In this document: in pieces, positions 7,342-62,110 of the stretch
Position numbering within the stretch: position 1 is the first letter of the stretch
How the letters are laid out: every line of letters begins with the position of its first letter
Origin: a bacterium
GTDB lineage: Bacteria > Bacteroidota > Ignavibacteria > UBA10030
Reading direction: 5' to 3'
DNA: 64,000 nucleotides
NCBI GenBank assembly: GCA_043803945.1
Contig: JAZDJN010000032.1
Coordinates: 1-64,000, forward strand
Position numbers and translations under genes: made by a program
The notes under the pieces: generated by a model
What the model saw: the letters and a program-made list of their open reading frames with translations, nothing else
Database searches by the model: none
What the model was told of the DNA's origin: nothing

Positions 7342-7380
7342 CCTTGATACTCCATCGAATATGTGCTAACTTCTTCACGT

Positions 7381-38000: not shown

Positions 38001-38134
38001 GCAATGGGGAAGGTGATGTCCGGAAAAAAATCGATTTTCAATTGTGAAAAGGAAAAGAAGCTGAAAAGGATTATTACCGCATACACCATCATTAGCGTAA
38101 TTTGTCGTTTGAGAGAAAATTTCGTGAGCAGCAT
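35042..38134 (-). CDS. RND efflux permease (AcrB family)
   Basis: 1030 aa; GLALAIGMLVDNSIVVLENI, GIAVNNGIVLVDY, RMRPVLMTALTTILGMVPLA. Confidence 0.96.
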   Translation of the reverse strand: MLLTKFSLKRQITLMMVYAVIILFSFFSFSQLKIDFFPDITFPIAGVITSYAGVGPDDIETLISRPIEEAVSSVKNIEKVTSQSSKGNSIVTLEFRYGTDMDQAENDIRKNLDYIRDYLPADASEPLVFVFDPSMMPISYYSISSPYLGPAELRRLAEEKIEPLVERVDGVASVETMGGSQRRINVNINPVLLASYNLSPNDVTQAIQFGSSLQPSGTIQTREKNYNLRVLSEYASLEQIKKTILTYKNGVPVYVSDVAVVEDGYKENTNEVRADYGEGVMLIIMKQSDANTILTSRKVKEAIPSIEAILPEGTKFVPIFDQSDFILMSVSNLRDSAIIAFVLSFAVIYFFLRNIRGSIIMGISIPVSVIATFAVMYAANVTLNVISMAGLALAIGMLVDNSIVVLENIYRHHEMEKNLMDAANIGTTEVGMAITASTLTTIAVFIPVLFVPNITGQLFKDMVLTISYSLAVSLIVAVTLVPMMSTRILKLETKRAENLFTRIKERMGTWLLKLSDNYSKTLHWSIYHKKTVLISVTILFVLSCGLAAFLGGEFMPKSDQAMIYAVMESPSGTPIEQTRIYAYSIEDIIKETIGKEDFESLAIFYGEREGLGAFGVTSSTIEVMVKLTPREKRTTTQFAIQDKLRERFDQMPGITYVFQEGGMITTEREIEIKVIGFNITGAKTLANELKSKLEKVKGLVDISLNTKETTPELQVHLNKDLLNYYNLSTLQVAGNISTAIQGRVASQYHEKGDEYDIYVQFAKEYRNKRESLEQIELALPTGGRIKLKDISTIVEEQSNPSIYRENQNRYVSVGCGLSGIDLSTAVSAINKIIADTPIPSDYQVIVGGTAEDQQEAFFYLGLAFIAAILLVYMIMASQFESFIDPFIIMFTVPLSIIGVFIFLAITGTTFSVMVLVGIVMLVGIAVNNGIVLVDYINQQRHHGMDLYEAVEFGCKARMRPVLMTALTTILGMVPLAVEMGSGSETWSPLARAVIGGLTATTVLTLIIIPVLYIVFEHAGDRVKEYFRKRR

Positions 38135-38148
38135 GGGTTCATTTTCCC

Positions 38149-43859: not shown

Positions 43860-43893
43860 TTTCACTCCTGAGACTCGTACCTTGAGCCCTATT

Positions 43894-44910
43894 ATGAAGA
43901 TGAGAGAAAAAATCACAATTCATGAAGTTGCGAGAAAAGCTGGTGTCTCCGTAGCAACTGTCTCTCGTGTCTATAATAATAGTAATCTGGTGACTGAACC
44001 GACAAAGGAACTTGTCCGTCAGGTTGCAGCAAAGTTACGATACACACCAAGTGTGTCTGCACGAAATCTTAGCAAGAGAAGCACGGAGACGATTGGTCTC
44101 CTTCTCCCCGATATGCATGGCGAATTCTTCTCTGAGATCATTCGTGGCGCTGATAGTGTTGCACGTGAGTACCAATACCATCTGCTGGTGTCTAGTTCCC
44201 ATAGCAATAAAGAAGAGCTCTTTTCCGCAATTCGGACGATGGATGGACGCGTCGATGGACTTGCTATTATGTCTCCACATCTTGATGGTGAAATTCTAAA
44301 TCATCATGCACTTCAAGTAATACCAACCGTAGTTATGAGTGCGTCAAAACAAGTTGCACTGCATGATACCGTTAAAGTCGATAATCTCGGTGGAGCAAAG
44401 CAGGTCATAAAACATCTCCTTGAAAAGGGGCATCGGAAGATCGCCCTGATTAAGGGTGAATCTGGGAATGAAGATTCTGAAGAACGATTTATTGGTTGCC
44501 TGAAAACCATGAAAGGTGCAGGATTGACATTCATTAAGGAGTACATTCTTGATGGAGATTTCACTGACACAAGTGGTTATACGGTTGCTGCAGATCTCCT
44601 GAAGAGAAGGGAACGGCCTACCGCTATATTTGCCTTCAATGATGAAATGGCAATCGGAGTGTTGCGACTCTTGAGAGAAAAAGGTTTGAAAGTCCCAGCA
44701 GATATAGCGGTTGCCGGTTTTGATGATATCCAAATCTCCAAATTGATCCATCCTTCTCTAACAACGGTCCATGTCAATATCAGCGAACTTGGTTCCAGGT
44801 CGATTAAACTTATCCTGAAGAAATTAAACTCTGAAAAAGAGCGAGAAAAACATTTACACCTTCTCCTCCCAGCATACCTAATTGTCAGAGACTCGACGAG
44901 AAAACAGTAA
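43894..44910 (+). CDS. LacI-family transcriptional regulator
   Basis: TIHEVARKAGVSVATVSRV, L.YTPS.SARNL, PTAIFAFNDEMAIG, VP.DIAVAGFDD, PSLTTV. Confidence 0.96.
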   Translation: MKMREKITIHEVARKAGVSVATVSRVYNNSNLVTEPTKELVRQVAAKLRYTPSVSARNLSKRSTETIGLLLPDMHGEFFSEIIRGADSVAREYQYHLLVSSSHSNKEELFSAIRTMDGRVDGLAIMSPHLDGEILNHHALQVIPTVVMSASKQVALHDTVKVDNLGGAKQVIKHLLEKGHRKIALIKGESGNEDSEERFIGCLKTMKGAGLTFIKEYILDGDFTDTSGYTVAADLLKRRERPTAIFAFNDEMAIGVLRLLREKGLKVPADIAVAGFDDIQISKLIHPSLTTVHVNISELGSRSIKLILKKLNSEKEREKHLHLLLPAYLIVRDSTRKQ

Positions 44911-44994: not shown

Positions 44995-46812
44995 ATGAAA
45001 AATTTCGTGCTAGTTGTTTTTTTTCTTGCCTTAATTCTTGCAGGGACAACAACTCTCCTTGCACAAACGGTGTGGGACGATCCACTATCGTTGACGGTAA
45101 AGAATGCAACGGGAGCTGTCACCTTAGACGGCAAGCTCGATGAGTCGGATTGGGCGGGTGCACCGACGCTGGTATTTGGGATGGGAGCGCATTTGAAGAA
45201 GCTGGTTGGTGAGTACACGGTGACGAGCAGCGCTGATGTGAAGAATGGGTTCGACGATGCGGGAGTGAAGTATTACATACCGCATAAGGACAGCACGGTG
45301 ACGAGGGTGAAGTTTTTACGGAAGGGGACGAATCTGTATATCGGCATCCAATCGAATGACAAGTCGATCTGCAAGTTTGATTGGGAAGGCGATGGCATGT
45401 TCATGAAGATCAAGACGTTGGCCGGACAGGAGAAAGAGTATAAGCTGTATTGGCAGAACATCGAGGCGAACAAGGATACGATACGGTATGAGGAAGGAGT
45501 CGCCGGATCAGGAGATGGGAAGGGATACCTGTTGACCGGCAGCACGGTGAACGACACGGCAAATACAGACAACGGATATACAGCGGAGATGGTGTTACAG
45601 TTGGACAAGTTGGGGTATGCGTCGACGTTGACGAGCGTTCAGTTGCTTATCAACATATTTGATCCGGATGGATTCAAGCATCCGATGAGCTCGTGGCATC
45701 ACACGATAGGGTCGTTTTACAAGTCGTGGTGGGGGAGTGAATGGGGAGGAACGATGAGAACACTGAACTTCACAGCGGAGCCCTTTGATGATCCACCCTC
45801 ATTGACGGTGAAGAATGCGACGGGCGGTGTTACGCTTGATGGGAAGTTAGACGAATCGGATTGGACGGGTGCGCCGACGCTGGTATTTGGGATGGGAGCA
45901 CATTTGAAGAAGCTGGCTGGTGAATACACGGTGACGAGCGGCGCTGATGTGAAGAATGGGTTCGACGATGCGGGAGTGAAGTATTACGTACCGCATAAGG
46001 ACAGCACGGTGACGAGGGTGAAGTTTTTACGGAAGGGGACGAACCTGTATATCGGTATCCAATCGAATGATAAGTCGATCTGCAAGTTTGATTGGGAAGG
46101 CGATGGCATGTTCATGAAGATTAAGACGTTGGCCGGGCAGGAGAAGGAGTATAAGCTGTACTGGCAGAACATCGAGGCGAACAAGGATACGATGCGGTAT
46201 GAGGAAGGAGTTGCCGGATCGGGAGATGGGAAGGGCTTTCTGCTGACCGGCAGTACGGTGAACGACACGACAAATGTGGACAATGGATATACTGCTGAGC
46301 TGATGCTCCAGCTCGATAAGCTTGGCTATGCCACATCGTCAACGACAGCCCAGGTATCGATTGACATATTTGATCCGGATGGATTCAAGCATCCGATGAG
46401 TTCGTGGCATCACACGATAGGGTCGTTTTACAAGTCGTGGTGGGGAAGTGAGTGGGGAAGTGCGTATCGGACACTACTCCTCAATAATACCACAGATGTT
46501 CGAGATGAGGTCGCCCTGATCCCGGACGTCTTCTCGCTCTCCCAGAACTATCCAAATCCGTTCAATCCTAGCACAACGATACAGTATGGCATTCCCGAAC
46601 GGAGTACTGTGGCATTGAAAGTCCATGATGTTATTGGTCGTGAGATTGCTACGTTGGTGAATGAAGAACTTCCTGCAGGGACACACCGCATAACGTTCAA
46701 TGCATCTACGTTAGCCAGTGGATTCTATTTCTATCGGCTGGTAGCAACTCCTAGAAGCTCTCCGCAGAAGGAACCGTTTATTACTGTAAAGAAATTATTA
46801 CTCATCAAATGA
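44995..46812 (+). CDS. Secreted protein with two near-identical CBM9-like domains and a T9SS-type C-terminal sorting domain
   Basis: Signal peptide (LLA-Q); VTLDGKLDESDW and GYTAE motifs in each 237-aa repeat; LSQNYPNPFNPSTTI...LASGFYFYRL...KKLLLIK tail. Confidence 0.8.
   Translation: MKNFVLVVFFLALILAGTTTLLAQTVWDDPLSLTVKNATGAVTLDGKLDESDWAGAPTLVFGMGAHLKKLVGEYTVTSSADVKNGFDDAGVKYYIPHKDSTVTRVKFLRKGTNLYIGIQSNDKSICKFDWEGDGMFMKIKTLAGQEKEYKLYWQNIEANKDTIRYEEGVAGSGDGKGYLLTGSTVNDTANTDNGYTAEMVLQLDKLGYASTLTSVQLLINIFDPDGFKHPMSSWHHTIGSFYKSWWGSEWGGTMRTLNFTAEPFDDPPSLTVKNATGGVTLDGKLDESDWTGAPTLVFGMGAHLKKLAGEYTVTSGADVKNGFDDAGVKYYVPHKDSTVTRVKFLRKGTNLYIGIQSNDKSICKFDWEGDGMFMKIKTLAGQEKEYKLYWQNIEANKDTMRYEEGVAGSGDGKGFLLTGSTVNDTTNVDNGYTAELMLQLDKLGYATSSTTAQVSIDIFDPDGFKHPMSSWHHTIGSFYKSWWGSEWGSAYRTLLLNNTTDVRDEVALIPDVFSLSQNYPNPFNPSTTIQYGIPERSTVALKVHDVIGREIATLVNEELPAGTHRITFNASTLASGFYFYRLVATPRSSPQKEPFITVKKLLLIK
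45076..46480 (+). repeat. Intragenic tandem duplication, period 711 bp
   Basis: Units start at 45076 and 45787 and share long identical nucleotide runs. Confidence 0.95.
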
Positions 46813-46824
46813 TGGTATCGTATT

Positions 46825-46858
46825 GAGCTGCAGAATGGGATTTTTCATTCTGCAGCTC
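46825..46858. terminator. Intergenic hairpin (weak terminator or mRNA stabiliser)
   Basis: gagctgcagaatg-N8-cattctgcagctc, 13-bp perfect stem, no clear T-run. Confidence 0.55.
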
Positions 46859-46944: not shown

Positions 46945-48867
46945 ATGAGGCCCTGGAATATCCTTTTTTCGATACTAATCGTATGCATTTTGACTGTAGG
47001 TGTCACTCGAGGACAAATGATGAAGAGAACCGATGCCCTCTGGGCTCGAGTCGTTCCTGCTGGAACAGTGACTGTTGACGGCAAACTCACTGAATCTGCG
47101 TGGGCGAAGGCCGAGTCTACCGTGATCCGGTATGATCCATCTAACTCAAATAATATCCCCGGGAGCGGATGGAAGTCGGAGCGGTCAGGTGGAAGCTGGA
47201 ACGGAACGGTGACCGATCCAACAAGGGCTGTCATCAAGTTCTTAATACAAGGCGATGAGTTGATCCTTGGAGTCTTTGTCTCCGACAGTTCTGTCGGTGG
47301 AGGATTGTTCAATGAATGCGATGGTCTCTTGATGAACTTGCGTGACCATGCCTCGCCAAACCTTCCCGCCCCTCCCTTTGAATACGGTTATGCTTGGGTC
47401 ACAGAAACGTGGGGGGATCCAAACGCTGGTAATGTGAATGCCAGTCCGATTTATTTTGGCCCGGTGAAATCCGACCGGTCGATCTATACCGGAGCAACCC
47501 AGGTGCTGGGAGTTTCGAATGATGACAAAAACGGCGGGACAAGTATCACTGCAGATCAAGGTTACACCATGGAAATTCGTTTCAATTTGCCGGCGAGAGG
47601 TTACAACGTCAATAAGCCAGGTGGTGAGATCATTGAGTTCACCCTCTCGGTCTATGATGCAGATTGGCAGTGGCCATATAACGATTCGAAGTTTTACGGA
47701 AATCGGGTCTGGTGGCAAGGACAGTGGGGAAATAGTGATACCTGGAATGTTGGAAGGATCTACGTACGTCAGGATGTTACAATATCGACAACTTCTCTGC
47801 CGGTGATTGGTCCTGATCTGATAATCCCCAATGGAAAAAATCATCCGGCACCAACCATCGATGGGAACCTGACAGAAGGTGTGTGGAAAAAAGCATCAAG
47901 TTTTCGCATTACCTTCAATGATAGCACACTGAGAAAATCCTATCCAGGTGTTGGTCCATGGAGGAGCGGACAAACCCAACCGGTGTTGACCGGTGCCATA
48001 GGAACACCCCCGGTATTAGATCCTGGAGATGCCGTTTTCAAGTACTTCTTCATTGCAGATACCCTGTACTTAGGTATAGATGTGAACGATCAGGTTGTCA
48101 CTTCGATTGAAGATTATGATCGGTGGGATGCCGTGCGTCTGATGATCAGTTCTCGCGACTCGCTTGAAAAAATTGATCACGTCCTCCTCACACGGATGTT
48201 AACGGTTCGGTTTGACAACATGGGGAAAATACAGCTCCGAGATTATCTCCAATACCTCGATTCTCTCAAGTATGCTCGTGCAGCATTGAAGATGAAATCT
48301 GGAACGACTATTAATGATCCAACGGATGCCGATGCAGGATACACTATCGAGATGGCCATTGCCCTCTCGCCGTTTGGCTATCCGGCTGGCCGGGGTGATG
48401 GTGTGCTCTTCCTTGGCGCAACGTTGATGGATGGGGATAAATTCTCGAATGCTGCCGATGATTATGGTACGCGTGCATGGTTCATGCGTGAACATGACCG
48501 GAGTTCTGCACCAGCCTGGTGCTATATGGATCCTAACTCTGTCATCACGTCTGTCGTTGAAGAAACCTCGGTATCACCAGTGCGAGAATTCAGATTACTG
48601 GGAAATTATCCGAATCCGTTTAATCCGTCCACTACTATTCTCTATGAAATTCCAGATGAAGGTCTAGTAACACTCATAATATACGATGCTCTCGGGCGAA
48701 TAGTGGAAAAGTCAAACGCAGGATATCAGAACACGGGTACACACTCTCTCCTGTTTCACGGCCAAGCACTAAGCTCTGGTATCTACTTCTATCACCTTGA
48801 GCTGCAGAATGTACGATCGACGACTTTAGTGCGTACCTCTCCCGGTAAAATGATTCTTGTAAAATAA
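46945..48867 (+). CDS. Secreted protein with two divergent CBM9-like domains and a T9SS-type tail
   Basis: Signal peptide (TRG-Q); VTVDGKLTESAW / PTIDGNLTEGVW and GYTMEI / GYTIEM; LLGNYPNPFNPST...LSSGIYFY...KMILVK. Confidence 0.78.
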   Translation: MRPWNILFSILIVCILTVGVTRGQMMKRTDALWARVVPAGTVTVDGKLTESAWAKAESTVIRYDPSNSNNIPGSGWKSERSGGSWNGTVTDPTRAVIKFLIQGDELILGVFVSDSSVGGGLFNECDGLLMNLRDHASPNLPAPPFEYGYAWVTETWGDPNAGNVNASPIYFGPVKSDRSIYTGATQVLGVSNDDKNGGTSITADQGYTMEIRFNLPARGYNVNKPGGEIIEFTLSVYDADWQWPYNDSKFYGNRVWWQGQWGNSDTWNVGRIYVRQDVTISTTSLPVIGPDLIIPNGKNHPAPTIDGNLTEGVWKKASSFRITFNDSTLRKSYPGVGPWRSGQTQPVLTGAIGTPPVLDPGDAVFKYFFIADTLYLGIDVNDQVVTSIEDYDRWDAVRLMISSRDSLEKIDHVLLTRMLTVRFDNMGKIQLRDYLQYLDSLKYARAALKMKSGTTINDPTDADAGYTIEMAIALSPFGYPAGRGDGVLFLGATLMDGDKFSNAADDYGTRAWFMREHDRSSAPAWCYMDPNSVITSVVEETSVSPVREFRLLGNYPNPFNPSTTILYEIPDEGLVTLIIYDALGRIVEKSNAGYQNTGTHSLLFHGQALSSGIYFYHLELQNVRSTTLVRTSPGKMILVK

Positions 48868-48938: not shown

Positions 48939-51614
48939 ATGAAGAGTGCTTTGAGGTCTGAATCACGCTCCTTTTCGTTCCAGTTCCCAATTGTATTACT
49001 CTTTTCTCTAGTACTTGGTCTGACTCCACTACAAGCAGACACGAAAGGGAAATTGGCAGGAAAAGTCGTTGATAAAAAAAATGAACCTCTTATCGGAGTG
49101 AATATCCTCCTGGTGGGGACAACTCTGGGAAGCGTCACTGATCTTGAGGGGAACTATGTCATCCTGAACATTCCCCCGGCACTCTATCAGGTACGGGTAA
49201 GCAGCATTGGTTATAGCCCACAGGTTGTGAGCGAAGTGCGCATCTCAGCAGGTCAAACAACCACGATTAATGTAACACTCTCTGAACAAGCTGTCACATT
49301 GGAGGAGGTGGTTGTCAAGGCAGAAAAACCGATCGTCGATGTACGACAAACGAGCTCTGTTGCGATCCTCGGTAAGGACCAGATTGCAGTTCTTCCTGTA
49401 CAAGACCTGAACGATATTGTAAACCTTCAGGCGGGTGTCGTCGATGGACACTTTCGTGGGGGGCGTCTGGGTGAAGTGCAATATCAGGTTGATGGAGTTT
49501 CTGTGAATAATCCGTTTGATAATTCCTCCAGCGTAAAACTCGACAGATCGGTGCTCCAGGAGGTCCAGATCATCAGCGGGACGTTTGATGCTGAGTATGG
49601 ACAGGCAATGAGTGGTGTTGTGAACGCCATCTTGAAGAGCGGTTCGGAGGATGCGTTTGAGTGGAATGTGGAACTTTACAGCGGCGATTATATCAACTCT
49701 GGCAAGACAGAGCGATTCCCGTTTATTAACCGGATTGATCCTCTGGCTATTCAGAGCTATCAAATCAGTCTAAGTGGGCCAACAGGATTAGAGAAGACTA
49801 CTTTTCTTGTAGGTGGCCGATATTTCAATAATGCGGGATGTCTCTTTGGTGAACGACGGTTTGTGCCAGGCGATGTGAATGATTTTCAGAGTTATCGATT
49901 CCACCCGACGGGAGATGGAAAACAGGTTTCCATGGGTGATGCTGAAGAGCTCTCCGGACAATTAAAAATTTCCAATCGCTCACTCGCTGGAATTCAATTA
50001 GGTTATCAAGCGATCGGCAATGTGATCAAATCCCAATTCTATTCCCACGCTTTTCGCTTCAATCCCGATGGCGCAAAGAAGCAGCGAAGTGTCTCACTGA
50101 GCCATGGCATTGACGCCACGCATTCCCTATCGAACACATTGTTTTATACTGTGAGCCTGCGTCAAAACTACTATCGCTATACGGATTTTGTCTATGAGGA
50201 TTTGTTCGATCCACGTTATGTGCAGTATGGTTTTCCCAAGGGAGATCGGAATTACGAAGTAGGTGCTTACGTTCAGGGAGTCGATCTGAGCAGATTCAAG
50301 CAGGAAACCTCTTCTTGGATTCTGAAAGCCTCCTTAACAAACCAAATTCAACGCTATCATCTCTTGAAAGCGGGTGCTGAATTTCAGATTTCGAAGATCA
50401 TCTTTGGTCCACCTGGGTCATTGGTGCCGACAACTGTGAATGGTGTCCAGGTCCTCGTGCCGATTATCGACAGTCCTGATTATCCGGGATTGAGATCGTA
50501 TCATCCTCTAATGGGCTCGGCCTTTATTCAGGATCGGATTGAGTTGGAGGATTTCCTTGTCCGGATTGGTGGGCGGCTCGAATATTTTAATGCTCGATCG
50601 GAATTGCCCGGTGATTTGCAGAATCCTGCAAATGCAATTTCCGGTGCACCTACTTCGAACCTCAGACCGATAAATCCGAAAATGATTTTTGCTCCGCGGC
50701 TTGGCATCTCCTATCCCATCACTGATCAGGGATCGATTTTCTTTTCCTATGGACATTTCTATCAGATGCCAGGTCTCGGACAGCTCTTTTCCAATTCTGA
50801 CTATACGATCTTGAAAGACTTGCAGGCAGGCAGCATCTCATTTGGCGTTATGGGTAATCCCAATCTTAAACCAGAGTTTACGACGCAATATGAAGTCGGG
50901 GTGAAGTCTCAGCTCTCTTCAAGTCTGGGATTTGATTTTAGTATCTACTATAAAGACATCCGCGACTTGCTTGGAGTGGAATTCGTCTCTACCTATACGG
51001 CTGCCGAATACGCACGCTTGACGAATGTTGACTTTGGTGAAGTCGAGGGATTCACTCTCGCAATTGATTATCGGAGTGGTGAATTGCTGAGTGCGAGTGT
51101 GGATTACAGTTACCAAATTACGACGGGGAATTCAAGCGATCCGCGCGAAACGGCGACTCGTGCTGCTGGCGGCGAAGATCCTCGCCCGCGGAAAGCTCCG
51201 TTAGCATGGGATCAACGGCATACGCTCAATGCAAATCTCATCATCTCTGAACGGGAAAATTATTCAATCACCGCTCTTGCCCGATTTGGATCGGGACAAC
51301 CCTATACACCGACGGTCTTGAGCCGGCTTGGTGCTAATCTAGAGACGAATTCAGGTCGGAAGGCGACTTTCCTGGTAGCGGATCTCCGCGCTGAAAAATC
51401 ACTTGACATCTTTGGTGTACGATGTAGTCTCTTTCTCCGGGTGTTCAACCTTTTTAATACCCACACAGTGAATGGATTTGTGTTCACGGATACGGGTAGC
51501 CCTGATTATACGCTGAATGTCGCAGGGAATGCTTCTCTGCTCCTCGATCCAAGTCGCTACTATCCACCCCGTCGTATAGAACTCGGATTTTCTATGAACA
51601 GTATTAGCCGGTGA
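48939..51614 (+). CDS. TonB-dependent receptor (non-SusC type)
   Basis: N-terminal carboxypeptidase-regulatory-like domain (GKLAGKVVD...PLIGVNI...GT..G.VTD..G.Y), plug (HFRGGR.GEV.YQVDG, GTFDAEYG.A.SGVVN), GNPNLKPE, PRRIELGF end. Confidence 0.93.
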   Translation: MKSALRSESRSFSFQFPIVLLFSLVLGLTPLQADTKGKLAGKVVDKKNEPLIGVNILLVGTTLGSVTDLEGNYVILNIPPALYQVRVSSIGYSPQVVSEVRISAGQTTTINVTLSEQAVTLEEVVVKAEKPIVDVRQTSSVAILGKDQIAVLPVQDLNDIVNLQAGVVDGHFRGGRLGEVQYQVDGVSVNNPFDNSSSVKLDRSVLQEVQIISGTFDAEYGQAMSGVVNAILKSGSEDAFEWNVELYSGDYINSGKTERFPFINRIDPLAIQSYQISLSGPTGLEKTTFLVGGRYFNNAGCLFGERRFVPGDVNDFQSYRFHPTGDGKQVSMGDAEELSGQLKISNRSLAGIQLGYQAIGNVIKSQFYSHAFRFNPDGAKKQRSVSLSHGIDATHSLSNTLFYTVSLRQNYYRYTDFVYEDLFDPRYVQYGFPKGDRNYEVGAYVQGVDLSRFKQETSSWILKASLTNQIQRYHLLKAGAEFQISKIIFGPPGSLVPTTVNGVQVLVPIIDSPDYPGLRSYHPLMGSAFIQDRIELEDFLVRIGGRLEYFNARSELPGDLQNPANAISGAPTSNLRPINPKMIFAPRLGISYPITDQGSIFFSYGHFYQMPGLGQLFSNSDYTILKDLQAGSISFGVMGNPNLKPEFTTQYEVGVKSQLSSSLGFDFSIYYKDIRDLLGVEFVSTYTAAEYARLTNVDFGEVEGFTLAIDYRSGELLSASVDYSYQITTGNSSDPRETATRAAGGEDPRPRKAPLAWDQRHTLNANLIISERENYSITALARFGSGQPYTPTVLSRLGANLETNSGRKATFLVADLRAEKSLDIFGVRCSLFLRVFNLFNTHTVNGFVFTDTGSPDYTLNVAGNASLLLDPSRYYPPRRIELGFSMNSISR

Positions 51615-54600
51615 GTATTTCCATGAACAGACGCTTTGGATGCAAGAAAACACTTGTCCATCTCCTTTTTATCGTTGGATGTGTTGCGCCTGGATTTGGA
51701 CAGATCCGTACTCCGGTTCCAGAATCCCAGCGCGGACGCATCGACGCAGAACGATCGGGAATGCATGATGCAGCGAGTATACGTACTGTTTTCTATAACT
51801 TTGGCATGGTGGGCGATTATCCGCCCGATCCGGGTAATGTCGATCTGAGCGTATTCCACTCGGTGGAAGTGCCAAAGGGATTGGGTCTCAACTACAGCGA
51901 TGGCATTACGCCATTTGTCCTTGCAAAAGTGCGGCAGCGGAACGGGGTCAATGCTTATATCATGGAAACGGGATTTCGCGAGCGTCAACAGTGGAGTCCA
52001 TATACACGACGGGTGATGAGGTTTGAACCACGGCCGGGTTATATGCAAGCCGACCCCGCCAAGAACATCAAGCGATCGCTCGCATTAAGCAGTGATAAGC
52101 GCACCTGGCCTGATGAATGGATAGACAAACTCGAAGACGTTACCGATCCGGGATGGAGAGGATCGTGGAACGGCTATTTTGGAAAACGCCCTGCCGCCGA
52201 TCAAGAGAGCTTCTTCGTTATGGATGATAATTTTTATGATGCGTGGGACTTCTATCCCGATAGCAGAGATACAACGAGACGGGGTCTTGGTTTGCGCGTG
52301 GAGGTTCGAGGATTTCAATGGTCCAATCCACAGGCAGCCAATGTCATCTTCTGGCACTACGATATCACCAACGAATCCACAACAGACTACAATGATAACA
52401 TCATCTTCGGTCTCTACATGGATTCCGGTGTGGGGGGCTCGGCACTTTCATGCGATGGTGTGTATGAATCGGACGACGATAATGCATACTTTGACAAATC
52501 CCTCGGCCTTAATCTCGTTTATACCTGGGATAAGAATGGTCATGGTGTTGCGTTCAATTCCAACTGCGCAACGAGCGGTTTTCTTGGATATGCATATTTG
52601 GAGACACCCGGGAATTCGACCAATGCAATTGATGATGACGACGATGGGATTCTCAATGAGAAGCGCGATGGTGGACCGGGTCAATTAATAACCGGTCAGG
52701 CAGCGATCATGGCGTTTGTCGCTTCACACTATGACACTGCAAAGTTTCAAGCCGCCTATGGGAAAATTGAGGATCGACCAGCGTTTCGTGCAGGCAAATG
52801 GTGGACAGGTGATGAGGATATGGATTGGGTTGCCGATCTTCATGACACTGGTGTTGATGGGATTTTCAATAAGGATCATCCAGATGTCGGGGAGGGAGAT
52901 GGAATTCCAACTGCGGGTGAACCCAACTTCGATCAGACAGATCTCCATGAATCCGATCAAATTGGCCTGACGGGATTTAAGATGAATCGCATCGTTGCCG
53001 GTCAGGGTACTCCCAATCCGCAGGTGGATGACATTGTCTTTTTTGATGATGGTCATGCATGGCCGAAACAACAGTATGAAATGTGGACTGACCCTGTTCA
53101 AGAGAAACGATTTGATGCTGCACTGGTAAGCAACTATAACATTGGATTCTTTTTTGCCTCGGGGCCGTTCAGACTCCTTCAACAAAAACGTGAACGTTTC
53201 AGTCTGGCTCTAGCCTATGGCAACGACCTCGACGAGTTGAAGCGTACCGTCAAAGTTGTGCAGCAGATTTACAATGCAAATTATCAGTTTGCTGTTCCTC
53301 CACCGCTCCCGACCGTTCAGGCGGAAGCTGGCGATGGGTACGTCCGTCTCTCATGGGATGATGTTGCTGAACGTGGTATCGATCCCGTGACGGGTTTGAA
53401 TGACTTTGAAGGATATCGTGTCTATCGTTCCACTGATCCAACTTTTCTTGATCCGAAACTTATCTCCAATGCGAGGGGGACGGGTCCGCTACAGGGCAGT
53501 AATGGAAGACCCATCGTTCAATTTGATCTCAAGAATAGTTTCAGGGGATTTTCCTCGCTTGCCGTTGAGGGTGTCCTATACTATCTGGGTGATGAGACGG
53601 GTATTACGCATACCTGGATTGATACAACGGTGACTAACGGAATCCTCTACTACTATGCAGTGACAGCCTACGACCACGGCGCCGATACTCTTGATTTTCA
53701 CTTCTATCCTTCGGAGAATCCAATCAGCGTTACACAGGATGTTCGAGCAGGTATCGTCTTACCACCCAACGTCGCCCAGGTGCGACCGAATCAACGTGTG
53801 ATGGGCTATCAACCTGCCGGTGCGAATGAAGCTCTGCGTCGTTCAGGTACAGGTTCCGGTTCGGTGAAGTTAAAAGTCTTGACATCATCGCTTGTGCCGA
53901 ATAATCATACTCTCTTGATCAAGTTTAGAACGAATCATCCCGACAGTATCAGGGCAGACTACTACGAGATGATCGACAGCACGACCAATACACTGCTGAT
54001 CGGTCAAGGCACAGATCTGATGGGAGAAGGCATTGGTCAGGTTGGTGCCGGAATTCAACCGATCATTGCTACACCCTTAACGACTTCGGTCGATACCCTT
54101 GCGAGTCAGTTCTTACCATCTGGTAAAACAAATGTGAAATTGAAATTCACCTATCAGCCAGTTGTCTCTCCAAATCGGAGGAGGTCCGGTTATCCGGCAA
54201 ATTTGACAATAACCTTTTCCGATACACCGCTCGATACGACACTTCAGGGCATTGGAAGACCACGCAAACCGGTAAAATACAGCATTGTCGCAATCGATTC
54301 GAATAAATCGATTCCTTTAAAGAGTCAACTCTTCGATCGTGACAACGACAGCACGTTGAGTCGGCCCGGGGAGTATATCGATGTCGTCACTTACTTGCCG
54401 GAAGCACTCACATCGGCAAAGGTCACATGGCGCATTCAGATCGATACCACTCGCATGCCTTCCGGTAGTCAGATCATCATCCCTTGCACAGGAGATCAAT
54501 TTACCGCCGTTATCAATAAACCATTCGGTGAGGGAGATGTCTACGCATTCACGACAGTGGGTGAGAGTATTGATAAGGACAAAGCAAAGCAAGAGTTTAC

Positions 54601-54910
54601 CGGTGAGCCCTATGTTGTTCCGAATCCGTATGTCGGTTTTTCGAGCTTCGAGCCGGAGCGTTTTGCAGTATCGGGGCGCGGAGAGAGGCGTATTGAATTT
54701 CGGAATCTTTCCAAGCAATGTACAATTCGGATCTTTACCCTTCACGGCGATCTCGTCCAAACACTCTACCATGATGGATCAATGGCAGGTGTTGTCGCCT
54801 GGAACTTACGCACGAAAGACAATTTAGAGGTAGCACCCGGTCTCTATATCTTTCATGTGGAAGGAGGTGAGCTGGGGACGAAAATTGGGAAATTTGCTAT
54901 TATTAAATAG
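51611..54910 (+). CDS. Large exported protein with Asp-rich motifs, FN3-like domain and variant C-terminal sorting domain
   Basis: GTGA overlap with the receptor stop; signal peptide; DDDDDG and GEGDGIPT.GEPNFD; VRLSWD..FEGYRVYRS..YYYAVTAYD; VVPNPY..IEF.NL..CTIRIFT..GDLV..WNL....VAPGLYIFHV..GKFAIIK. Confidence 0.8.
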   Translation: MSISMNRRFGCKKTLVHLLFIVGCVAPGFGQIRTPVPESQRGRIDAERSGMHDAASIRTVFYNFGMVGDYPPDPGNVDLSVFHSVEVPKGLGLNYSDGITPFVLAKVRQRNGVNAYIMETGFRERQQWSPYTRRVMRFEPRPGYMQADPAKNIKRSLALSSDKRTWPDEWIDKLEDVTDPGWRGSWNGYFGKRPAADQESFFVMDDNFYDAWDFYPDSRDTTRRGLGLRVEVRGFQWSNPQAANVIFWHYDITNESTTDYNDNIIFGLYMDSGVGGSALSCDGVYESDDDNAYFDKSLGLNLVYTWDKNGHGVAFNSNCATSGFLGYAYLETPGNSTNAIDDDDDGILNEKRDGGPGQLITGQAAIMAFVASHYDTAKFQAAYGKIEDRPAFRAGKWWTGDEDMDWVADLHDTGVDGIFNKDHPDVGEGDGIPTAGEPNFDQTDLHESDQIGLTGFKMNRIVAGQGTPNPQVDDIVFFDDGHAWPKQQYEMWTDPVQEKRFDAALVSNYNIGFFFASGPFRLLQQKRERFSLALAYGNDLDELKRTVKVVQQIYNANYQFAVPPPLPTVQAEAGDGYVRLSWDDVAERGIDPVTGLNDFEGYRVYRSTDPTFLDPKLISNARGTGPLQGSNGRPIVQFDLKNSFRGFSSLAVEGVLYYLGDETGITHTWIDTTVTNGILYYYAVTAYDHGADTLDFHFYPSENPISVTQDVRAGIVLPPNVAQVRPNQRVMGYQPAGANEALRRSGTGSGSVKLKVLTSSLVPNNHTLLIKFRTNHPDSIRADYYEMIDSTTNTLLIGQGTDLMGEGIGQVGAGIQPIIATPLTTSVDTLASQFLPSGKTNVKLKFTYQPVVSPNRRRSGYPANLTITFSDTPLDTTLQGIGRPRKPVKYSIVAIDSNKSIPLKSQLFDRDNDSTLSRPGEYIDVVTYLPEALTSAKVTWRIQIDTTRMPSGSQIIIPCTGDQFTAVINKPFGEGDVYAFTTVGESIDKDKAKQEFTGEPYVVPNPYVGFSSFEPERFAVSGRGERRIEFRNLSKQCTIRIFTLHGDLVQTLYHDGSMAGVVAWNLRTKDNLEVAPGLYIFHVEGGELGTKIGKFAIIK

Positions 54911-54976
54911 TGGATGAAGAGTGTGCTGGATCATCCTCAACGACGGAAAGGGCCAGTGGATATCAGACGAGAGCAT

Positions 54977-56002
54977 ATGAATAAAACATTTTTCTATCGC
55001 TGTACAGTGTACCTGACTTTCTGTTGCAGCCTCGTTGTGATTGCATTGCAGAGTCAGACTAAGACAGGAACAACTGTCGGACAATTCCTGCTCATAGAAC
55101 CGAGTGCCCGCATCGCTGCGATGGGAAATGCCGGCGCCGGGGCCTTGAACGAAGTGCAGGCAGGATATTATAATCCAGCGGTATGGGGAACGCTTGAGCG
55201 ATCAGGTGTTCAATTCACTCATAGTCTCTGGCTAGCCGATATTACTTATAACTATGCAAGTGTCGGCGTTAAGACAGGCTCACAGGGAGCGGTTGCGGTG
55301 ACCTTTACATCACTGAGTTCAGGTGAAATCGATGTAAGAACTGTTGAACAACCGCTTGGCACGGGCGAACGATATTCGGTCACCAATATAGCGTTGGGAT
55401 TAGGGTATGGCTACCGTTTGAGCGATCGATTCTCCGCAGGTATTACACTGAACTATATTCAGGAAACAATCTGGCATAGCTCGCTTGTTGCAGTTGGCCT
55501 GAACTTCGGAACGCTCTTTCGTGTGACAAGCGATGACCTTTACCTTGGGGCAAGTCTTTCGAACTTCGGAACGCGGGCCAGATACAGTGGGACGGATTTG
55601 CGAATCCGGTTTGATGGCAATCCATCAACATACGGAGATAACAGTAATCTGCCCGGTGAAGTTTATACAGAAGAATACCCTTTACCGATCCTCTTTCGGG
55701 TTGGGCTTAGTTATCCTCTTAGGATCGATTCGAAAAATCATCTGTATGTTGCGATCGATGCACTTCATCCGAGCGATAACACGGAGAGCATAAACGTCGG
55801 TCTCGAATGGACGTTTATGGAGATTGTTTCGTTGCGTGGAGGATACCAACAACTTTTCCAAAGGGATTCAGAGATAGGGCTCACCCTGGGAATGGGCCTT
55901 CACTATGAGTTCTTTAGTGTTCCGCTACACCTCGACTACGCCTGGGCAAACTATAAACAGCTTAAAGAGACACAGCGCATCACATTTGGCTTACAATTCT
56001 AG
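54977..56002 (+). CDS. PorV/PorQ-family outer membrane beta-barrel
   Basis: GTT.GQFL.I.PSAR..AMG.A, YYNPA, H..WLADI, LP..FRVG, G.EW......LRGGY, DYA, terminal F. Confidence 0.85.
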   Translation: MNKTFFYRCTVYLTFCCSLVVIALQSQTKTGTTVGQFLLIEPSARIAAMGNAGAGALNEVQAGYYNPAVWGTLERSGVQFTHSLWLADITYNYASVGVKTGSQGAVAVTFTSLSSGEIDVRTVEQPLGTGERYSVTNIALGLGYGYRLSDRFSAGITLNYIQETIWHSSLVAVGLNFGTLFRVTSDDLYLGASLSNFGTRARYSGTDLRIRFDGNPSTYGDNSNLPGEVYTEEYPLPILFRVGLSYPLRIDSKNHLYVAIDALHPSDNTESINVGLEWTFMEIVSLRGGYQQLFQRDSEIGLTLGMGLHYEFFSVPLHLDYAWANYKQLKETQRITFGLQF

Positions 56003-56063: not shown

Positions 56064-58457
56064 TTGTTTAAGACGAAGTATGGCTATTTTTCTTCGAACG
56101 GAAAAGAATTCATCATCACAAATCCCCAGACACCTCGCCCCTGGGTGAATGTCATCAGCAATGGTGACATGGGCTTCATTCTTTCTCAAGCAGGTGGTGG
56201 ATACAGTTGGCGAACGAATGCACAGATTAATCGGCTGACACGCTGGGAGCAAGACATTGTTAAAGATGAATGGGGAAAATTCCTTTATATCCGTGATGCA
56301 CAAATCGGAAAACTATGGTCTGCAGCGTGGAAGCCATGCTGTGTAACTCCCGACTTCTATGAAGTCCACTATGGTGCGGGATATGCCACTATCCTCTCAC
56401 GGCTAAATGGAATCCAGACGGCATGGACAATGTTCGTTGCTCCTGATGAACCGATTGAGCTATGGAAATTAATCGTTACAAATACTTCAAAAAAAAATCG
56501 GACGTTACAGCTCTTCACGTTCTTCGAATGGTGTCTCGGTGCTGCACCGGATTGGCATCGAGAGTTCCATAAATGTTTTATCGAGACGCAGTATGACTCT
56601 TCCATGAATGCCATTCTTGCCACTAAGCGATTATGGGAAGTTCCTTCTGGACAGGGACACTGGAACGTGGCGTGGCCTTATATTGCATTTCATTCTGTCA
56701 ATATCAAACCCGCGGCGTTTGATTGCAGTAAGGAAAATGTCTTGGGCCCTTACGGCACACCGAGTCGACCACTCGGGATCACATCGGGTCGTTTGAAGAA
56801 AGCGTCGGGAAATTATCACGATCCAGTCGCATCCCTGCACGTTAATGTCGCCTTGGCACCCGGGCAAAGTAAGACACTCATTTTTACACTCGGTGCATCG
56901 GCCAATAGGGATGAAGTCAGGGCTCTCACAAAAAAGTATCGTTCTATTCCAAACGTGGATGCTGCACTTGAGAAGGTTCAGCAACGATGGAATACGTTGC
57001 TCTCAGCCTCACAGGTGAAGACACCCGATGCGTCGATGAATATACTACTGAACCACTGGCTTAAATATCAAGCTATTGCCGGCCGCCTTTGGGGGAGGAC
57101 TGGCTACTATCAAGCGGGAGGTGCCTATGGGTACCGGGACCAACTGCAGGATAGCCAGATCTTTCTTTCCGTTCAGCCGGAGAGGACGAAGGAACAAATC
57201 CTCCTACATGCACGTCATCAATTCAAAGACGGCACCGTCTACCATTGGTGGCATCCTCTTTCCGAGGTTGGATACTCCACGGCGATGACAGACGATCTCC
57301 TCTGGCTTCCCTTCCTTGTTAATTCTTATTGGGAAGAAACAGGGGATTCATCAATCCTCGATTGTAAAGAGCCGTTTGTTGATGACCACGAACCATCCTC
57401 GCTCTACGATCATTGCTTTCGCGCTATTGAAAAAACACTTTGCCGGGTCAGCCCTCGAGGGCTTCCGCTCATTGGCGCCGGCGATTGGAACGATGGCTTG
57501 AGTGCCGTTGGCCTGAAATGGAAAGGGGAATCAATATGGCTTGGCGAATTCCTCTATTACATCCTCAAGAGATTCGTGAGAATTACAGCGATTTATGGAG
57601 ATGCTGCACGGTCGGAACAATATCTCCGGGAAGCGGAAAAACTCATCTATGCGATTAATCAATATGGATGGGATGGCCACTGGTATTTCTATGGAACAAA
57701 AGACTCGGGAGAGAAGATTGGATCGCAAGAAAATAAGGAAGGCCGCATCCATCTTAATCCTCAAACGTGGGCAATCCTTGCCGATATTGCAGACGGACCA
57801 CGGGCGTCGGAAGTCCTTGATGTAATCTTTAAGAATTTAGAAAGTGAAGCTGGCCCTATTCTGCTCTCGCCAGCGTATCATACGCCGGATGAATACATTG
57901 GATATCTGACACGGTATGCACCAGGTACACGAGAGAATGGAGCCACCTACACTCATGCCGCAACATGGGCAATTATTGCCGCTGCGAAACTTGGAGAGGC
58001 TGAAGCCGCATATCGATTGTTTTCAAAAATTAATCCAATCGTGCGCGGGAGTAAACCCGATCACTATTGCGTTGAACCTTATGTATCCCCAGGAAATATT
58101 GATGGTCCCGATTCTGAATTCTATGGTCGCGGAGGATGGACCTGGTACACTGGTTCGGCTGCTTGGCTTTGGAAATCGGGTATGGAATGGATCTTAGGAG
58201 TTCGTGCCACTCCTGAAGGACTGCTCATTAAACCATGCATTCCAGCACAATGGAAAGAATATTCAGTGAAACGGATATTCCGTGGCGCAACGTATCGCAT
58301 TGCTGTCTCAAATCCTAATCGTGTCAATCGAGGTATTGTTACTGTCCTTGCTGATGGTCAACCATTGGAAGGATTTCAGCCTGCAGATGAAGTTGTACTC
58401 CCACTCTATCCGCCCAGTTCAAATCATGAAATCACGGTAGTCCTTGGTAAAGAATAG
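56064..58457 (+). CDS. GH94 glycoside phosphorylase (NdvB/Cgs phosphorylase-like)
   Basis: TPRPWVNVISN, YQAGGAYGYRDQLQD, DDLLWL, GDWNDG, RENGATYTHAA, GRGGWTWYTGSAAW; TTG start with GAGAGGA SD; no signal peptide. Confidence 0.92.
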   Translation: MFKTKYGYFSSNGKEFIITNPQTPRPWVNVISNGDMGFILSQAGGGYSWRTNAQINRLTRWEQDIVKDEWGKFLYIRDAQIGKLWSAAWKPCCVTPDFYEVHYGAGYATILSRLNGIQTAWTMFVAPDEPIELWKLIVTNTSKKNRTLQLFTFFEWCLGAAPDWHREFHKCFIETQYDSSMNAILATKRLWEVPSGQGHWNVAWPYIAFHSVNIKPAAFDCSKENVLGPYGTPSRPLGITSGRLKKASGNYHDPVASLHVNVALAPGQSKTLIFTLGASANRDEVRALTKKYRSIPNVDAALEKVQQRWNTLLSASQVKTPDASMNILLNHWLKYQAIAGRLWGRTGYYQAGGAYGYRDQLQDSQIFLSVQPERTKEQILLHARHQFKDGTVYHWWHPLSEVGYSTAMTDDLLWLPFLVNSYWEETGDSSILDCKEPFVDDHEPSSLYDHCFRAIEKTLCRVSPRGLPLIGAGDWNDGLSAVGLKWKGESIWLGEFLYYILKRFVRITAIYGDAARSEQYLREAEKLIYAINQYGWDGHWYFYGTKDSGEKIGSQENKEGRIHLNPQTWAILADIADGPRASEVLDVIFKNLESEAGPILLSPAYHTPDEYIGYLTRYAPGTRENGATYTHAATWAIIAAAKLGEAEAAYRLFSKINPIVRGSKPDHYCVEPYVSPGNIDGPDSEFYGRGGWTWYTGSAAWLWKSGMEWILGVRATPEGLLIKPCIPAQWKEYSVKRIFRGATYRIAVSNPNRVNRGIVTVLADGQPLEGFQPADEVVLPLYPPSSNHEITVVLGKE

Positions 58458-58458
58458 C

Positions 58459-60690
58459 ATGAAAGGAAGACGAAATTCTTTGCTACCAATAAGCTCAACA
58501 CTACAATACCTTCCAGAGCGACGCTCGAAGCGTCGCGTCATTGCTCAATGGTTCATTCTCGTCTTACTGCTTATGAATTTCCCAAGCATTGTATTTGCTC
58601 AGGGAATGACATTTTCCATTATTTTTGATGATGACCCGGGTTCAACTGTCTATCGTGATGCCTCGTGGGGATACGCTAATGGAGGAGATTATCTGCGTCT
58701 TGCAGGTGCGGGCGATAAATTACCACTTGAAACCTCACAGCACTATAGTGGAACAATGTGCGGTGTTCTTGACTATCGTCATGCAACGAATGGAATGTGG
58801 GAAATGTTCATCGCAAGCAACTCGTGGCAATCTCGAGATTTCTCGAGCTATGATAGCCTCGTCTTTTATGTGAATGCTCCTTCGGCAATTCCCGATAATG
58901 AACTCCCTCGTCTAGGTCTTGAAGCCTCGAATAGCGCAAAGAGCGCAATCATCACACTTTCACAATACCTGAGATTGGATGGTTCCACGGTGACATGGCA
59001 GCGTGTCAGTATTCCCTTCAACGCCTTTGAGCCGTTCGGAAGCTTCTCCCTCTCAGCGTTCAAGGCCATACGATTCCTCGCTGGTGGAGAGACCTCTGCA
59101 GAACGAACTCTCTGGATTGATTACATCGGCGCTGTTAAGAAGGGAGCTGTTCTGCCACTCCCGACACTTTCGGATCAGCAACTGCTTGACTCTCTTCAAT
59201 ATAAGGCATTTCTCTTTTTCTGGAATGAAGCCAATCCATCCAACGGGTTGATTCGAGATCGTAACACGATCACATCATCGGCCAGTATTGCTGCCGTTGG
59301 ATTTGGATTGACTGCTATTGCCGTTGCCATTGACCATGGATGGATCACGCGTGACGCCGGACGAGATCGAGTCCTGACAACGCTGAGAACGTTTTGGGAA
59401 AAACCGCAGGGGAGTACTCCGAGCGGAACGATCGGCTACAAAGGATGGTTCTACCATTTCCTTGATATGAATACTGCAACTCGATTATATTCTCCTTCAT
59501 GGAAGAGTGAACTCTCATCCATTGACACCGGGCTGTTACTCGCAGGGATTTTATTTTCCCGGGAATATTTTACTGGAAGCGACAGCATTGAAGTCCGCAT
59601 CAGATCATTAGCAGATTCAATATCCAATCGGATTGACTGGCAATGGATGATGGACGGCGGTTCATCGCTGACACATGGATATACTCCTGAAAACAATATG
59701 CTCCCTTACCGCTGGATTGGGTACAGCGAAGCGATGATTCTCTATATTCTTGGAATGGGATCGACCAAAAATCCGGTACCACCGTCTGCATGGAATGCCT
59801 GGACCAGTGGGTATTCCTGGCTAACTCATTATGGATATTCGCATGTGAATTTTCCCCCGCTGTTCGGTCATCAATATTCACATTGTTGGATCGACTTTCG
59901 CTCGATTGCAGATGGTTACATGCGAGAGAAAAAAATAACATACTTTGAAAACTCCCGCCGTGCAACATTAGCCAATCGTGCTTACTGCATAGCGAATCCT
60001 TCAGGATTCCAAGGTTATGGAGCGACAATCTGGGGACTTACAGCGTGCGATGGACCAACGGGATATAATGCCCGAGGTGCACCTCCAGCGCAAAACGATG
60101 ATGGAACCATTGCTCCGACTGCAGCGGCAAGTTCAATGCCGTTCGTACCGAACGAGTCGATCACAGCCATGCAGGCAATGTATACACTCTATGGTCCACA
60201 ATTGTGGGGGAGATATGGTTTTGGTGATGCTTTCAATCCGACGAAGAACTGGTTCGGATCGGAGGTGATCGGCATCGATCAGGGTCCGATTATTATCATG
60301 ATCGAAAATTATCGGACAGGTAAAGTTTGGCAAACATTTATGAAAAATCCTCAAGTGAAGTTGGGATTATCCTCAGCAGGATTTCAACCACTACCAACTG
60401 CTATTAATGAACACACGCGGATCCCACAGACAACGATGCTTCATCAGAATTTTCCAAATCCATTTAATCCTTCAACTACCATTCGTTATACCCTTAACGA
60501 TCCGGGTCAGGTGACACTCTCAATTTTTAATGTGATGGGTCAACTCGTGGGGCGGATGACGCACGAGCATTATACGGCAGGAGAATATCAATTCCAGTGG
60601 GAGGCAATGAACAACCCAAGCGGTATCTATTGTTATCAATTGCAGCATGGTGTGACGTCTCTGACAAAACGTATGATACTTCTTAAATGA
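58459..60690 (+). CDS. GH144 beta-1,2-glucanase with N-terminal CBM-like domain and T9SS-type tail
   Basis: SIAAVGFGL, GWFYHF, ELSSIDT, PLFGHQYSH.WIDFR, WGLTACDGP, DDGTIAPTAA, GIDQGP...IENYR; QNFPNPFNPST tail. Start uncertain. Confidence 0.9.
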   Translation: MKGRRNSLLPISSTLQYLPERRSKRRVIAQWFILVLLLMNFPSIVFAQGMTFSIIFDDDPGSTVYRDASWGYANGGDYLRLAGAGDKLPLETSQHYSGTMCGVLDYRHATNGMWEMFIASNSWQSRDFSSYDSLVFYVNAPSAIPDNELPRLGLEASNSAKSAIITLSQYLRLDGSTVTWQRVSIPFNAFEPFGSFSLSAFKAIRFLAGGETSAERTLWIDYIGAVKKGAVLPLPTLSDQQLLDSLQYKAFLFFWNEANPSNGLIRDRNTITSSASIAAVGFGLTAIAVAIDHGWITRDAGRDRVLTTLRTFWEKPQGSTPSGTIGYKGWFYHFLDMNTATRLYSPSWKSELSSIDTGLLLAGILFSREYFTGSDSIEVRIRSLADSISNRIDWQWMMDGGSSLTHGYTPENNMLPYRWIGYSEAMILYILGMGSTKNPVPPSAWNAWTSGYSWLTHYGYSHVNFPPLFGHQYSHCWIDFRSIADGYMREKKITYFENSRRATLANRAYCIANPSGFQGYGATIWGLTACDGPTGYNARGAPPAQNDDGTIAPTAAASSMPFVPNESITAMQAMYTLYGPQLWGRYGFGDAFNPTKNWFGSEVIGIDQGPIIIMIENYRTGKVWQTFMKNPQVKLGLSSAGFQPLPTAINEHTRIPQTTMLHQNFPNPFNPSTTIRYTLNDPGQVTLSIFNVMGQLVGRMTHEHYTAGEYQFQWEAMNNPSGIYCYQLQHGVTSLTKRMILLK

Positions 60691-62099: not shown

Positions 62100-62110
62100 A
62101 GTATTCAATC

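Follow-up and report, generated by a model that had tools for sequence, protein, structure and literature searches.

A receptor, a large type IX-type partner protein and a PorV/PorQ-family barrel as a candidate outer-membrane import module in Ignavibacteria and other FCB bacteria

The window analysed here, i.e. the whole stretch of 64,000 nucleotides (positions 1 to 64,000, forward strand, of contig JAZDJN010000032.1 in GenBank assembly GCA_043803945.1, from an Ignavibacteria genome of lineage UBA10030), carries at 48939-56002 three adjoining genes for a TonB-dependent receptor, a large exported protein (the partner) with a variant of the C-terminal tail that a type IX secretion system (T9SS) uses, and an outer-membrane barrel of the PorV/PorQ family. 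From sequence comparison, we lean on balance to the reading that this triad would be an outer-membrane nutrient-capture and import module, serving for sugars and peptides and doing the job that SusC/SusD does in Bacteroidia, with the partner anchored by its own barrel. The features of the triad are as follows.

48939..51614, + strand: TonB-dependent receptor, non-SusC, 891 aa, with CarboxypepD_reg, Plug and TonB_dep_Rec_b-barrel domains
51611..54910, + strand: large exported partner protein of 1099 aa (GTG start) or 1095 aa (ATG start at 51623), no Pfam family
51704..53290, + strand: partner N-terminal body, residues 32-560 (Asp-rich part 401-560), conserved, no credible PDB or Pfam match
53291..53815, + strand: partner FN3-like region, residues 561-735, weak profile match to 3mpc, the best shared segment among paralogues
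53816..54595, + strand: partner variable region, residues 736-995, the least conserved part among orthologues
54596..54907, + strand: partner variant T9SS C-terminal domain, residues 996-1099, forming a subclass of its own in the tail alignment, with weak similarity to PorZ and PorU tails
54914..56002, + strand: PorV/PorQ-family outer-membrane barrel, 362 aa, matching NF033709 and present in 76/80 related loci

The triad and its recurrence

The receptor contains a Plug domain (PF07715, 24.1 bits against a cut-off of 23.9) and a barrel domain (PF00593, 130.4 bits, cut-off 27), the succession of a Plug domain and a 22-strand barrel domain being the criterion for a TonB-dependent receptor. Because its score against the SusC model TIGR04056 (93.7 bits, with residues 38-160 alone matching) is far under the cut-off of 368.25, the receptor is not a SusC protein. 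The original prediction had this non-SusC receptor coupled to the large exported protein by a GTGA overlap, and the overlap is real (...agccggtgagtatttccatgaac). The database record of the partner (P0004, 1095 aa) begins at the ATG 12 nt after the GTG, and the receptor and partner genes lie no more than 8 nt apart whichever partner start is used. The gene directly after the partner, described earlier as PorV-like, indeed matched the PorV/PorQ family model NF033709 with 192.7 bits (cut-off 90) over residues 53-362; it scored below the equivalog cut-offs for PorV (NF033710, 86.8 versus 250) and PorQ (NF033711, 96.5 versus 220), and a Pfam scan gave no PorP/SprF match for it. The true start of the barrel gene is likely the ATG at 54977, ahead of its signal peptide. 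No terminator-like sites were found between the receptor gene and the glycosidase genes.

When one genome per species was scanned, at least 500 loci came up, and 80 of them were kept for synteny counts. About ten lineages of the Fibrobacterota-Chlorobiota-Bacteroidota (FCB) group carry the triad among these 80, which come from Ignavibacteria, Rhodothermales, KSB1, Calditrichota, Eisenbacteria, Gemmatimonadetes, Fibrobacteres, Latescibacterota, Krumholzibacteriia and Zhuqueibacterota. The receptor gene lies just upstream of the partner gene in 72/80 loci and the barrel gene just downstream in 76/80, and each of the 8 receptor misses and 4 barrel misses is a case in which the contig stops at the partner gene or no more than a few hundred bases from it; as every miss falls at a contig end, the order of the triad is beyond chance. 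Receptor orthologues are 46-69% identical (72/80 loci) and partner orthologues 57-73% identical across phyla. Other genes of the window locus also have matches among the 80, namely the LacI regulator (48), the second CBM9 protein (62), the GH94 phosphorylase (50) and the two GH144 proteins (71 and 61). Judged by sequence, the 80 loci are orthologues of one old catabolic locus, which would account for the high identity of the partner across phyla. A single housekeeping machine, an idea raised by the 60-75% identity of the closest partner homologues, was dropped, since the whole locus is orthologous and paralogous triads occur elsewhere.

The genome from which the window comes (5.54 Mb, 100% complete by marker genes) encodes 19 PorV-family barrels as found by phmmer, and 14 of the 19 are in triads. 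Thirteen of these triads are strict, with receptor, variant-tail gene and barrel following one another directly, and one is reordered. The five non-triad barrels are the true PorV (308 bits, encoded next to PorU), PorQ (242.6 bits), a PorV2-like barrel and two small barrels in tandem. The 14 triad receptors and one neighbour make up the top 15 receptor matches in the genome, after which the score drops from 164 to 85 bits. When searched by leave-one-out hidden Markov models, the tail-less bodies of 13/14 partners ranked first among 9912 open reading frames (76-224 bits); because these bodies retrieve one another, the partners are, on profile evidence, one superfamily with a common N-terminal body and variable middle parts, the full 'large' architecture being present in three of them only. 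In the 14 paralogous triads, the distance matrix of each part (receptor, tail or barrel) correlates with those of the other two (r = 0.58, 0.56 and 0.39, all p <= 0.001); the parts have thus been duplicated as a set and have diverged in company, which is no demonstration of contact. The expected co-occurrence of the three genes was thus borne out by synteny, by the block-wise duplicated paralogues and by the distance correlation, and triads occur not just in Ignavibacteria-like genomes, as had been stated, but widely in other FCB genomes.

Five further genomes were reached via the loci: L048 (Eisenbacteria), L079 (Ignavibacteriaceae), L010 (Zhuqueibacterota), L037 and L036. They contain 59 PorV-family barrels: for 38, a receptor match lies on the same strand 1.2-7 kb upstream, for 6 the receptor is directly upstream, and 15 have no receptor match; likely triad copies number 16 and 19 in two other genomes. 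Several arrangements besides the strict triad were also noted. A variant order, with the barrel straight after the receptor and a variant-tail partner of ~710-780 aa up- or downstream in the same locus, is seen at L093 (C87:29001-39468 of the window's own genome), G203:C1:1260991-1268128 and similar loci. Three closely related triads of the window's own genome have a fourth gene right after the barrel (L097:9490-11025, L102:6420-7961 and L101:12652-14220, in C81, C56 and C75), the products of which are 511-522 aa, are mutually homologous (183.7 and 92.5 bits) and show weak similarity to FadL, BamG and the PorV family. At L104:4489-7903 (C34:48489-51903 of that genome), two small PorV/PorQ-family barrels in tandem (319 and 298 aa) come after a 521-aa protein that has a T9SS-type tail, and there is no receptor.

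The variant tail and the large partner protein

The tail of the window partner starts with VVPNPY and ends with GKFAIIK. The tails of three neighbours, encoded from 44995, 46945 and 58444, carry the N[YF]PNPFNPST motif and are matched by the Pfam family Por_Secre_tail (PF18962), which leaves the partner tail unmatched; the distinctness of the partner's C-terminal domain from these three, claimed at the outset, therefore holds. Set against the genome's ordinary tails in an alignment, the variant tails have VVPNPY/F in place of NYPNPFNPST, 10-15 additional residues after this motif, a conserved LP..CTIRIYT strand and the ending GKFAIIK/R, and they share with the ordinary tails a PNP motif, central strands and a terminal K/R. 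The partner tail weakly matches the PorZ tail (NF052228, E 6e-4; 5m11, E 0.026) and the PorU tail (6za2, E 0.04), and a profile of the variant tail also picks up ordinary tail proteins with 15-45 bits. On the basis of these weak alignments and weak profile matches, we read the variant tail as belonging to the T9SS type A domain, of which it would be a divergent subclass. No match to the type B family CHU_C was found in the window partner; the sole CHU_C match, below threshold, was in the C63 paralogue (19.9 versus 27 bits).

The tail is better conserved than the protein to which it is attached. Among 57 orthologues, its identity to the window sequence is 73%, versus 62% for the remainder of the protein, and the tail has the higher value in 57/57. 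The ordinary tail of the second CBM9 protein (CBM9b) in the same loci behaves in the reverse way (34% versus 43% for the body, n = 47; tail higher in 4/47). Such a constraint should fit a permanent interface rather than a throwaway address label, as the tail outdoes its body and the neighbours' ordinary tails do not.

The tail is also linked to the barrel by position. A profile built from the 14 variant tails of the window's own genome was run on the five further genomes and gave 54 matches of at least 72 bits. In 38 of these, 233 nt or less separate the end of the match from a following barrel, and 7 others lie within 9 kb of one in another order. None of the 21 weaker matches adjoins a barrel (0/21, against 38/54), so that the variant tail is specifically tied to a co-encoded PorV-family barrel, as the original prediction had it.

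The body of the partner is of no recognised family. None of the Pfam-A families, the SusD-family models (e.g. PF07980) included, matched the 1099-aa protein at E <= 0.1, and in lacking any Pfam match it is not a SusD homologue, in keeping with the earlier view. The PDB, searched with the family profile and the N-terminal 531 residues, yielded the weak tail and FN3 matches alone, besides a match of the N-terminal body to a glutathione S-transferase that was dismissed as chance (34 residues). In the ESM Atlas, the whole partner hit unnamed clusters alone, residues 30-560 gave no usable match, and no model of the partner itself is present. The Asp-rich runs described earlier are visible in the translation. 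An FN3-like domain had also been proposed; the stretch YYYAVTAYD resembles FN3 domains in look and the Fn3-like protein 3mpc was matched by profile, but the match is weak (E 0.039), and the domain is accordingly given here as a possible one. Homologues of the partner number more than 2647, with 3911 representatives at E <= 1e-3. The best 120 show full-length identities of 60-75%, are all unnamed or 'hypothetical' and belong to Ignavibacteria, KSB1, Calditrichaeota, Eisenbacteria and Zhuqueibacterota; the best 120 matches of the starch-locus paralogue are likewise all unnamed or 'hypothetical' metagenome proteins. Many Asp, Glu, Trp and Asn residues are invariant in the N-terminal 730 residues. 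The variable region at 53816-54595 is homologous (182 bits) to a domain in C86:31886-34405 of the same genome, an esterase-like 839-aa protein with an ordinary type A tail.

The signal peptide had been left open between signal peptidase I (SPI, GFG-Q) and signal peptidase II (SPII, IVG-C). In 15 aligned orthologues, the signal peptides end in A-x-A/G followed by Q/E/D/V and the Cys is not conserved. SPI is favoured for this reason and is the most likely type, and the lipoprotein reading (IVG-C) was dropped. A glutamine rule has reportedly been described for Bacteroidetes (PMC5837995), and an A-x-A then Q in the partner would fit it.

Proposed mechanism and alternative explanations

In the mechanism that we propose, the partner would cross the inner membrane via Sec and signal peptidase I, and the outer membrane via the T9SS through its C-terminal domain. 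Its tail would then stay uncut on the co-encoded PorV/PorQ-family barrel, in the manner of the PorZ tail on PorQ and the PorU tail on PorV, whereby the partner would be pinned at the cell surface beside its own TonB-dependent receptor, bind and perhaps process the substrate, and pass it to the receptor. At the window locus, the substrate would most likely be beta-1,2-gluco-oligosaccharides freed by the GH144 enzymes, the breakdown of which after import would be completed by the GH94 and GH2 enzymes under LacI control. T9SS secretion, tail retention, the contacts of barrel and receptor and the binding of ligand are all inferred. The genome encodes the T9SS parts PorU, PorV, PorQ and SprA. According to the available text of a review (PMC10202324), the PorZ and PorU tails are kept on PorQ and PorV, and cognate PorV-like barrels are proposed there to shield tails from cleavage. 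It is PorZ-PorQ and PorU-PorV, with their retained type A tails, that form the known analogue, and not the PorP/SprF barrels named in the original prediction.

Several observations weigh against this mechanism. The curated type A models PF18962 and TIGR04183 give no match to the partner tail. Among the 54 strong tail matches, 9 have no nearby barrel, and the 72-bit line by which they are defined was set after the gap in scores from 72.8 to 66.1 bits had been seen. These 9 include four partner-like genes in tandem (~1009-1052 aa each, tails 99-103 bits) that stand ahead of a receptor match at G204:C26:172908-188092, where their strand has no PorV-family barrel close by. The barrel comes straight after the receptor, with the partner elsewhere in the locus, for 6/59 barrels of the other genomes and in one locus of the window's own genome. 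One partner of that genome (C87:295533-298226) fell outside the body superfamily in the leave-one-out search. Block duplication alone can produce the correlations among receptor, tail and barrel, and barrel and tail are the least correlated pair (r = 0.39). The 57-73% identity of the partner is higher than might be expected for a substrate-specific binder such as SusD, and conservation across phyla would also suit an enzyme or a structural part. Lastly, no match to Pfam GldM_1st (PF12081) was found in the genome, the GldM motor protein being either divergent or missed.

The barrel might instead be a cargo-specific secretion helper or shuttle only, with the partner released or attached by sortase, the receptor importing alone and the genes merely co-regulated. 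The available text of the same review (PMC10202324) presents PorV as a shuttle and the PorP/SprF barrels as serving specific substrates, the PorU sortase is encoded in the genome, and the linkage of tail and barrel suits a helper as well as an anchor. We consider this explanation unlikely, however, since a signal used for transit only is not expected to outdo the mature protein in conservation, as the partner tail does in 57/57 orthologues and ordinary tails do not, and since the receptor subfamily is as triad-specific as the barrel and co-diverges with both other parts, which co-regulation alone does not require.

A partner that is mainly a surface enzyme of an unrecognised family, e.g. a glycanase or peptidase, rather than a binding lid would explain the high conservation across phyla and the invariant Asp, Glu, Trp and Asn residues of the N-terminal 730 positions, and catalysis is compatible with a protein that has no known family or solved relative. 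Yet bodies of the same superfamily stand beside differing loci (beta-glucan, starch, pectin-like, PL6-type and peptide), which a common scaffold or receptor-docking role combined with a variable binding part reconciles more easily than one enzyme does, and the loci already hold dedicated secreted enzymes; we therefore rate the enzyme explanation as distinctly improbable.

That the barrel serves the receptor, as a BamG-like assembly partner or a FadL-like side channel, with the tail an ordinary if divergent secretion signal, seems very improbable to us: the 14-strand barrels PorV, BamG and FadL are homologues, and BamA is another barrel, against which BamG packs (available text of PMC12578637), the barrel stands straight after the receptor in some loci, and weak BamG-model matches were obtained for the window barrel and for the fourth gene of three triads, but the window barrel scores 20 bits against BamG (cut-off 250) and 193 against the PorV/PorQ family, 38/54 strong tail matches end right before barrels, and the tail is under the special constraint described above (73% versus 62% for the body).

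Substrate context, distribution and comparison with known systems

Surface anchoring of the partner for import, the reading that we prefer, is consistent with the genes around the triad. The remaining features of the window locus are as follows.

43882..44910, + strand: LacI-family regulator at the head of the locus (Pfam LacI and Peripla_BP_3), with a homologue in 48/80 related loci
44995..46812, + strand: CBM9-like protein with an ordinary T9SS type A tail (Pfam CBM9_1 and Por_Secre_tail; tail start NYPNPFNPST)
46945..48867, + strand: second CBM9-like protein (CBM9b) with an ordinary type A tail (Por_Secre_tail, weak CBM9_1), in 62/80 loci
56064..58457, + strand: GH94 phosphorylase (Pfam GH94), with a match in 50/80 loci
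58444..60690, + strand: GH144-like glucanase with CBM30 and an ordinary type A tail (PF10091, CBM30, Por_Secre_tail)
60687..62099, + strand: second GH144-like protein (PF10091), in 61/80 loci
62012..64000, + strand: GH2-family glycosidase (Pfam Glyco_hydro_2 domains) running past the window edge, the reading frame reaching C32:64750 in the genome

Among solved proteins, the GH94 protein best matched the phosphorylase domain of cyclic beta-1,2-glucan synthase with 557.8 bits, versus 434 for cellobiose phosphorylase, and the PF10091 proteins matched the solved endo-beta-1,2-glucanase 5gzh and its relatives in the PDB. Based on these two matches, beta-1,2-glucan is most likely the substrate of the window locus. 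A perfect 15-bp hairpin without a clear T run lies at 46825-46858, just 3' of the first CBM9 gene, and may separate this gene from the downstream operon. Elsewhere in the window are a 1222-aa TPR-rich protein (7363-11031) and, on the - strand at 35042-40616, a resistance-nodulation-division efflux set with an AcrB-type pump (35042-38134) and an outer-membrane factor (39270-40616).

The neighbours of the other triads in the genome are varied. Besides GH94/GH144, the triads adjoin a CBM20 protein; GH29, GH97 and a heparinase-like protein; PL6-like proteins; GH88 and GH28; NamZ with an M19 dipeptidase; and a racemase, DctM and GGT. An importer of glycans only, as first envisaged, does not agree with the several copies that adjoin peptidases.

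The triad occupies the position of susCD in loci for carbohydrate-active enzymes (CAZymes), as had been supposed, and a search with PF07980 found no SusD above the cut-off in the genome. The sole SusD_RagB match, at C9:13582-14001 (L091) in a 584-aa frame, scored 20.5 bits against a cut-off of 23.1. A survey of 201 sampled genomes of the phylum found the large-protein family in 103/201 and SusD in 112/201. In the class to which the window belongs, the large-protein family was present in 41/48 genomes and SusD in 12/48, the 12 having 1-2 matches each. The respective counts were 1/12 and 11/12 in family f15, 0/13 and 13/13 in f20, 25/33 and 33/33 in f27, and 0/39 and 0/39 in f19. A strict either/or distribution is ruled out by f27, which has both, and f19, which has neither; the large-protein family and SusD tend to replace each other but can coexist. 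In the available text of PMC10576277, susCD is scarce in the CAZyme clusters of Ignavibacteriales, and in that of the genome paper on Melioribacter roseus (PMC3534657), Mros0761-0759 are named SusC, SusD and SusE.

Ignavibacteria and several other FCB phyla degrade polymers in soils, sediments and wastewater with CAZyme clusters that mostly lack susCD, as far as the available text of PMC10576277 describes them. The triad, with 14 copies in this genome and about ten lineages, is a concrete candidate for the route of oligomer uptake in such susCD-poor phyla, and it is made up of three unannotated or mis-typed families. If the proposed module is real, it would tie nutrient import directly to the T9SS, account for the multiplication of PorV/PorQ paralogues, establish a new subclass of tails that withstand processing, and give tools that predict polysaccharide utilization loci a marker in genomes where SusD-based searches come up empty. 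We put forward more tentatively, as a possibility short of probable, that SusD-poor FCB lineages use a third general import design, in which capture proteins delivered by the T9SS sit on PorV/PorQ-type barrels via uncleaved tails. The T9SS would then be an assembly line for import machines, and the 14-25 PorV-family barrels per genome a set of cargo-specific anchors. No published description of the triad was found in the mainly non-subscription literature searched; its parts are of known kinds, and what appears to be new is their combination in an import module that recurs.

The triad resembles SusC/SusD (RagA/RagB) in that a CarboxypepD_reg-like TonB-dependent receptor is followed at once by the gene for a surface partner, in regulated loci with secreted and periplasmic glycan enzymes that occur in many copies per genome with differing substrates. 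It differs in that the receptor fails the SusC model, the partner has no SusD homology and is two to three times larger, most likely carries an SPI signal instead of a lipobox, and has a T9SS-type tail; in addition, the third gene encodes a PorV/PorQ-family barrel, and some triad copies lie in peptide loci. In Bacteroides, non-SusC transporters likewise have a non-SusD partner encoded next door, according to the available part of Price et al. (bioRxiv 10.1101/2023.03.17.533168), a section heading of which states that these transporters take smaller substrates than SusC-like ones. The lids described in that part are lipoproteins, whereas the triad partners are large, of T9SS type, provided with their own barrel and encoded in loci for polymer degradation. 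The SprB-SprF pair, which has a type B tail and a PorP/SprF-like barrel, is similar in its co-encoded, cargo-specific barrel, as described in the available text of PMC9143113 and PMC10202324; in contrast, the triad barrel is of the PorV/PorQ family, the triad tail is read as one of the type A kind, and SprB-SprF has no receptor. PorZ-PorQ and PorU-PorV of Porphyromonas gingivalis share with the triad a type A-like tail docking on a PorV/PorQ-family barrel (available text of PMC10202324), docking and retention being proposals in the case of the triad. These pairs, however, are single-copy machine parts, and the PorU, PorV and PorQ genes of the genome studied here are separate from its triads, whereas the tail-barrel pair of the triad is present ~14-fold, joined to a receptor, in catabolic loci.

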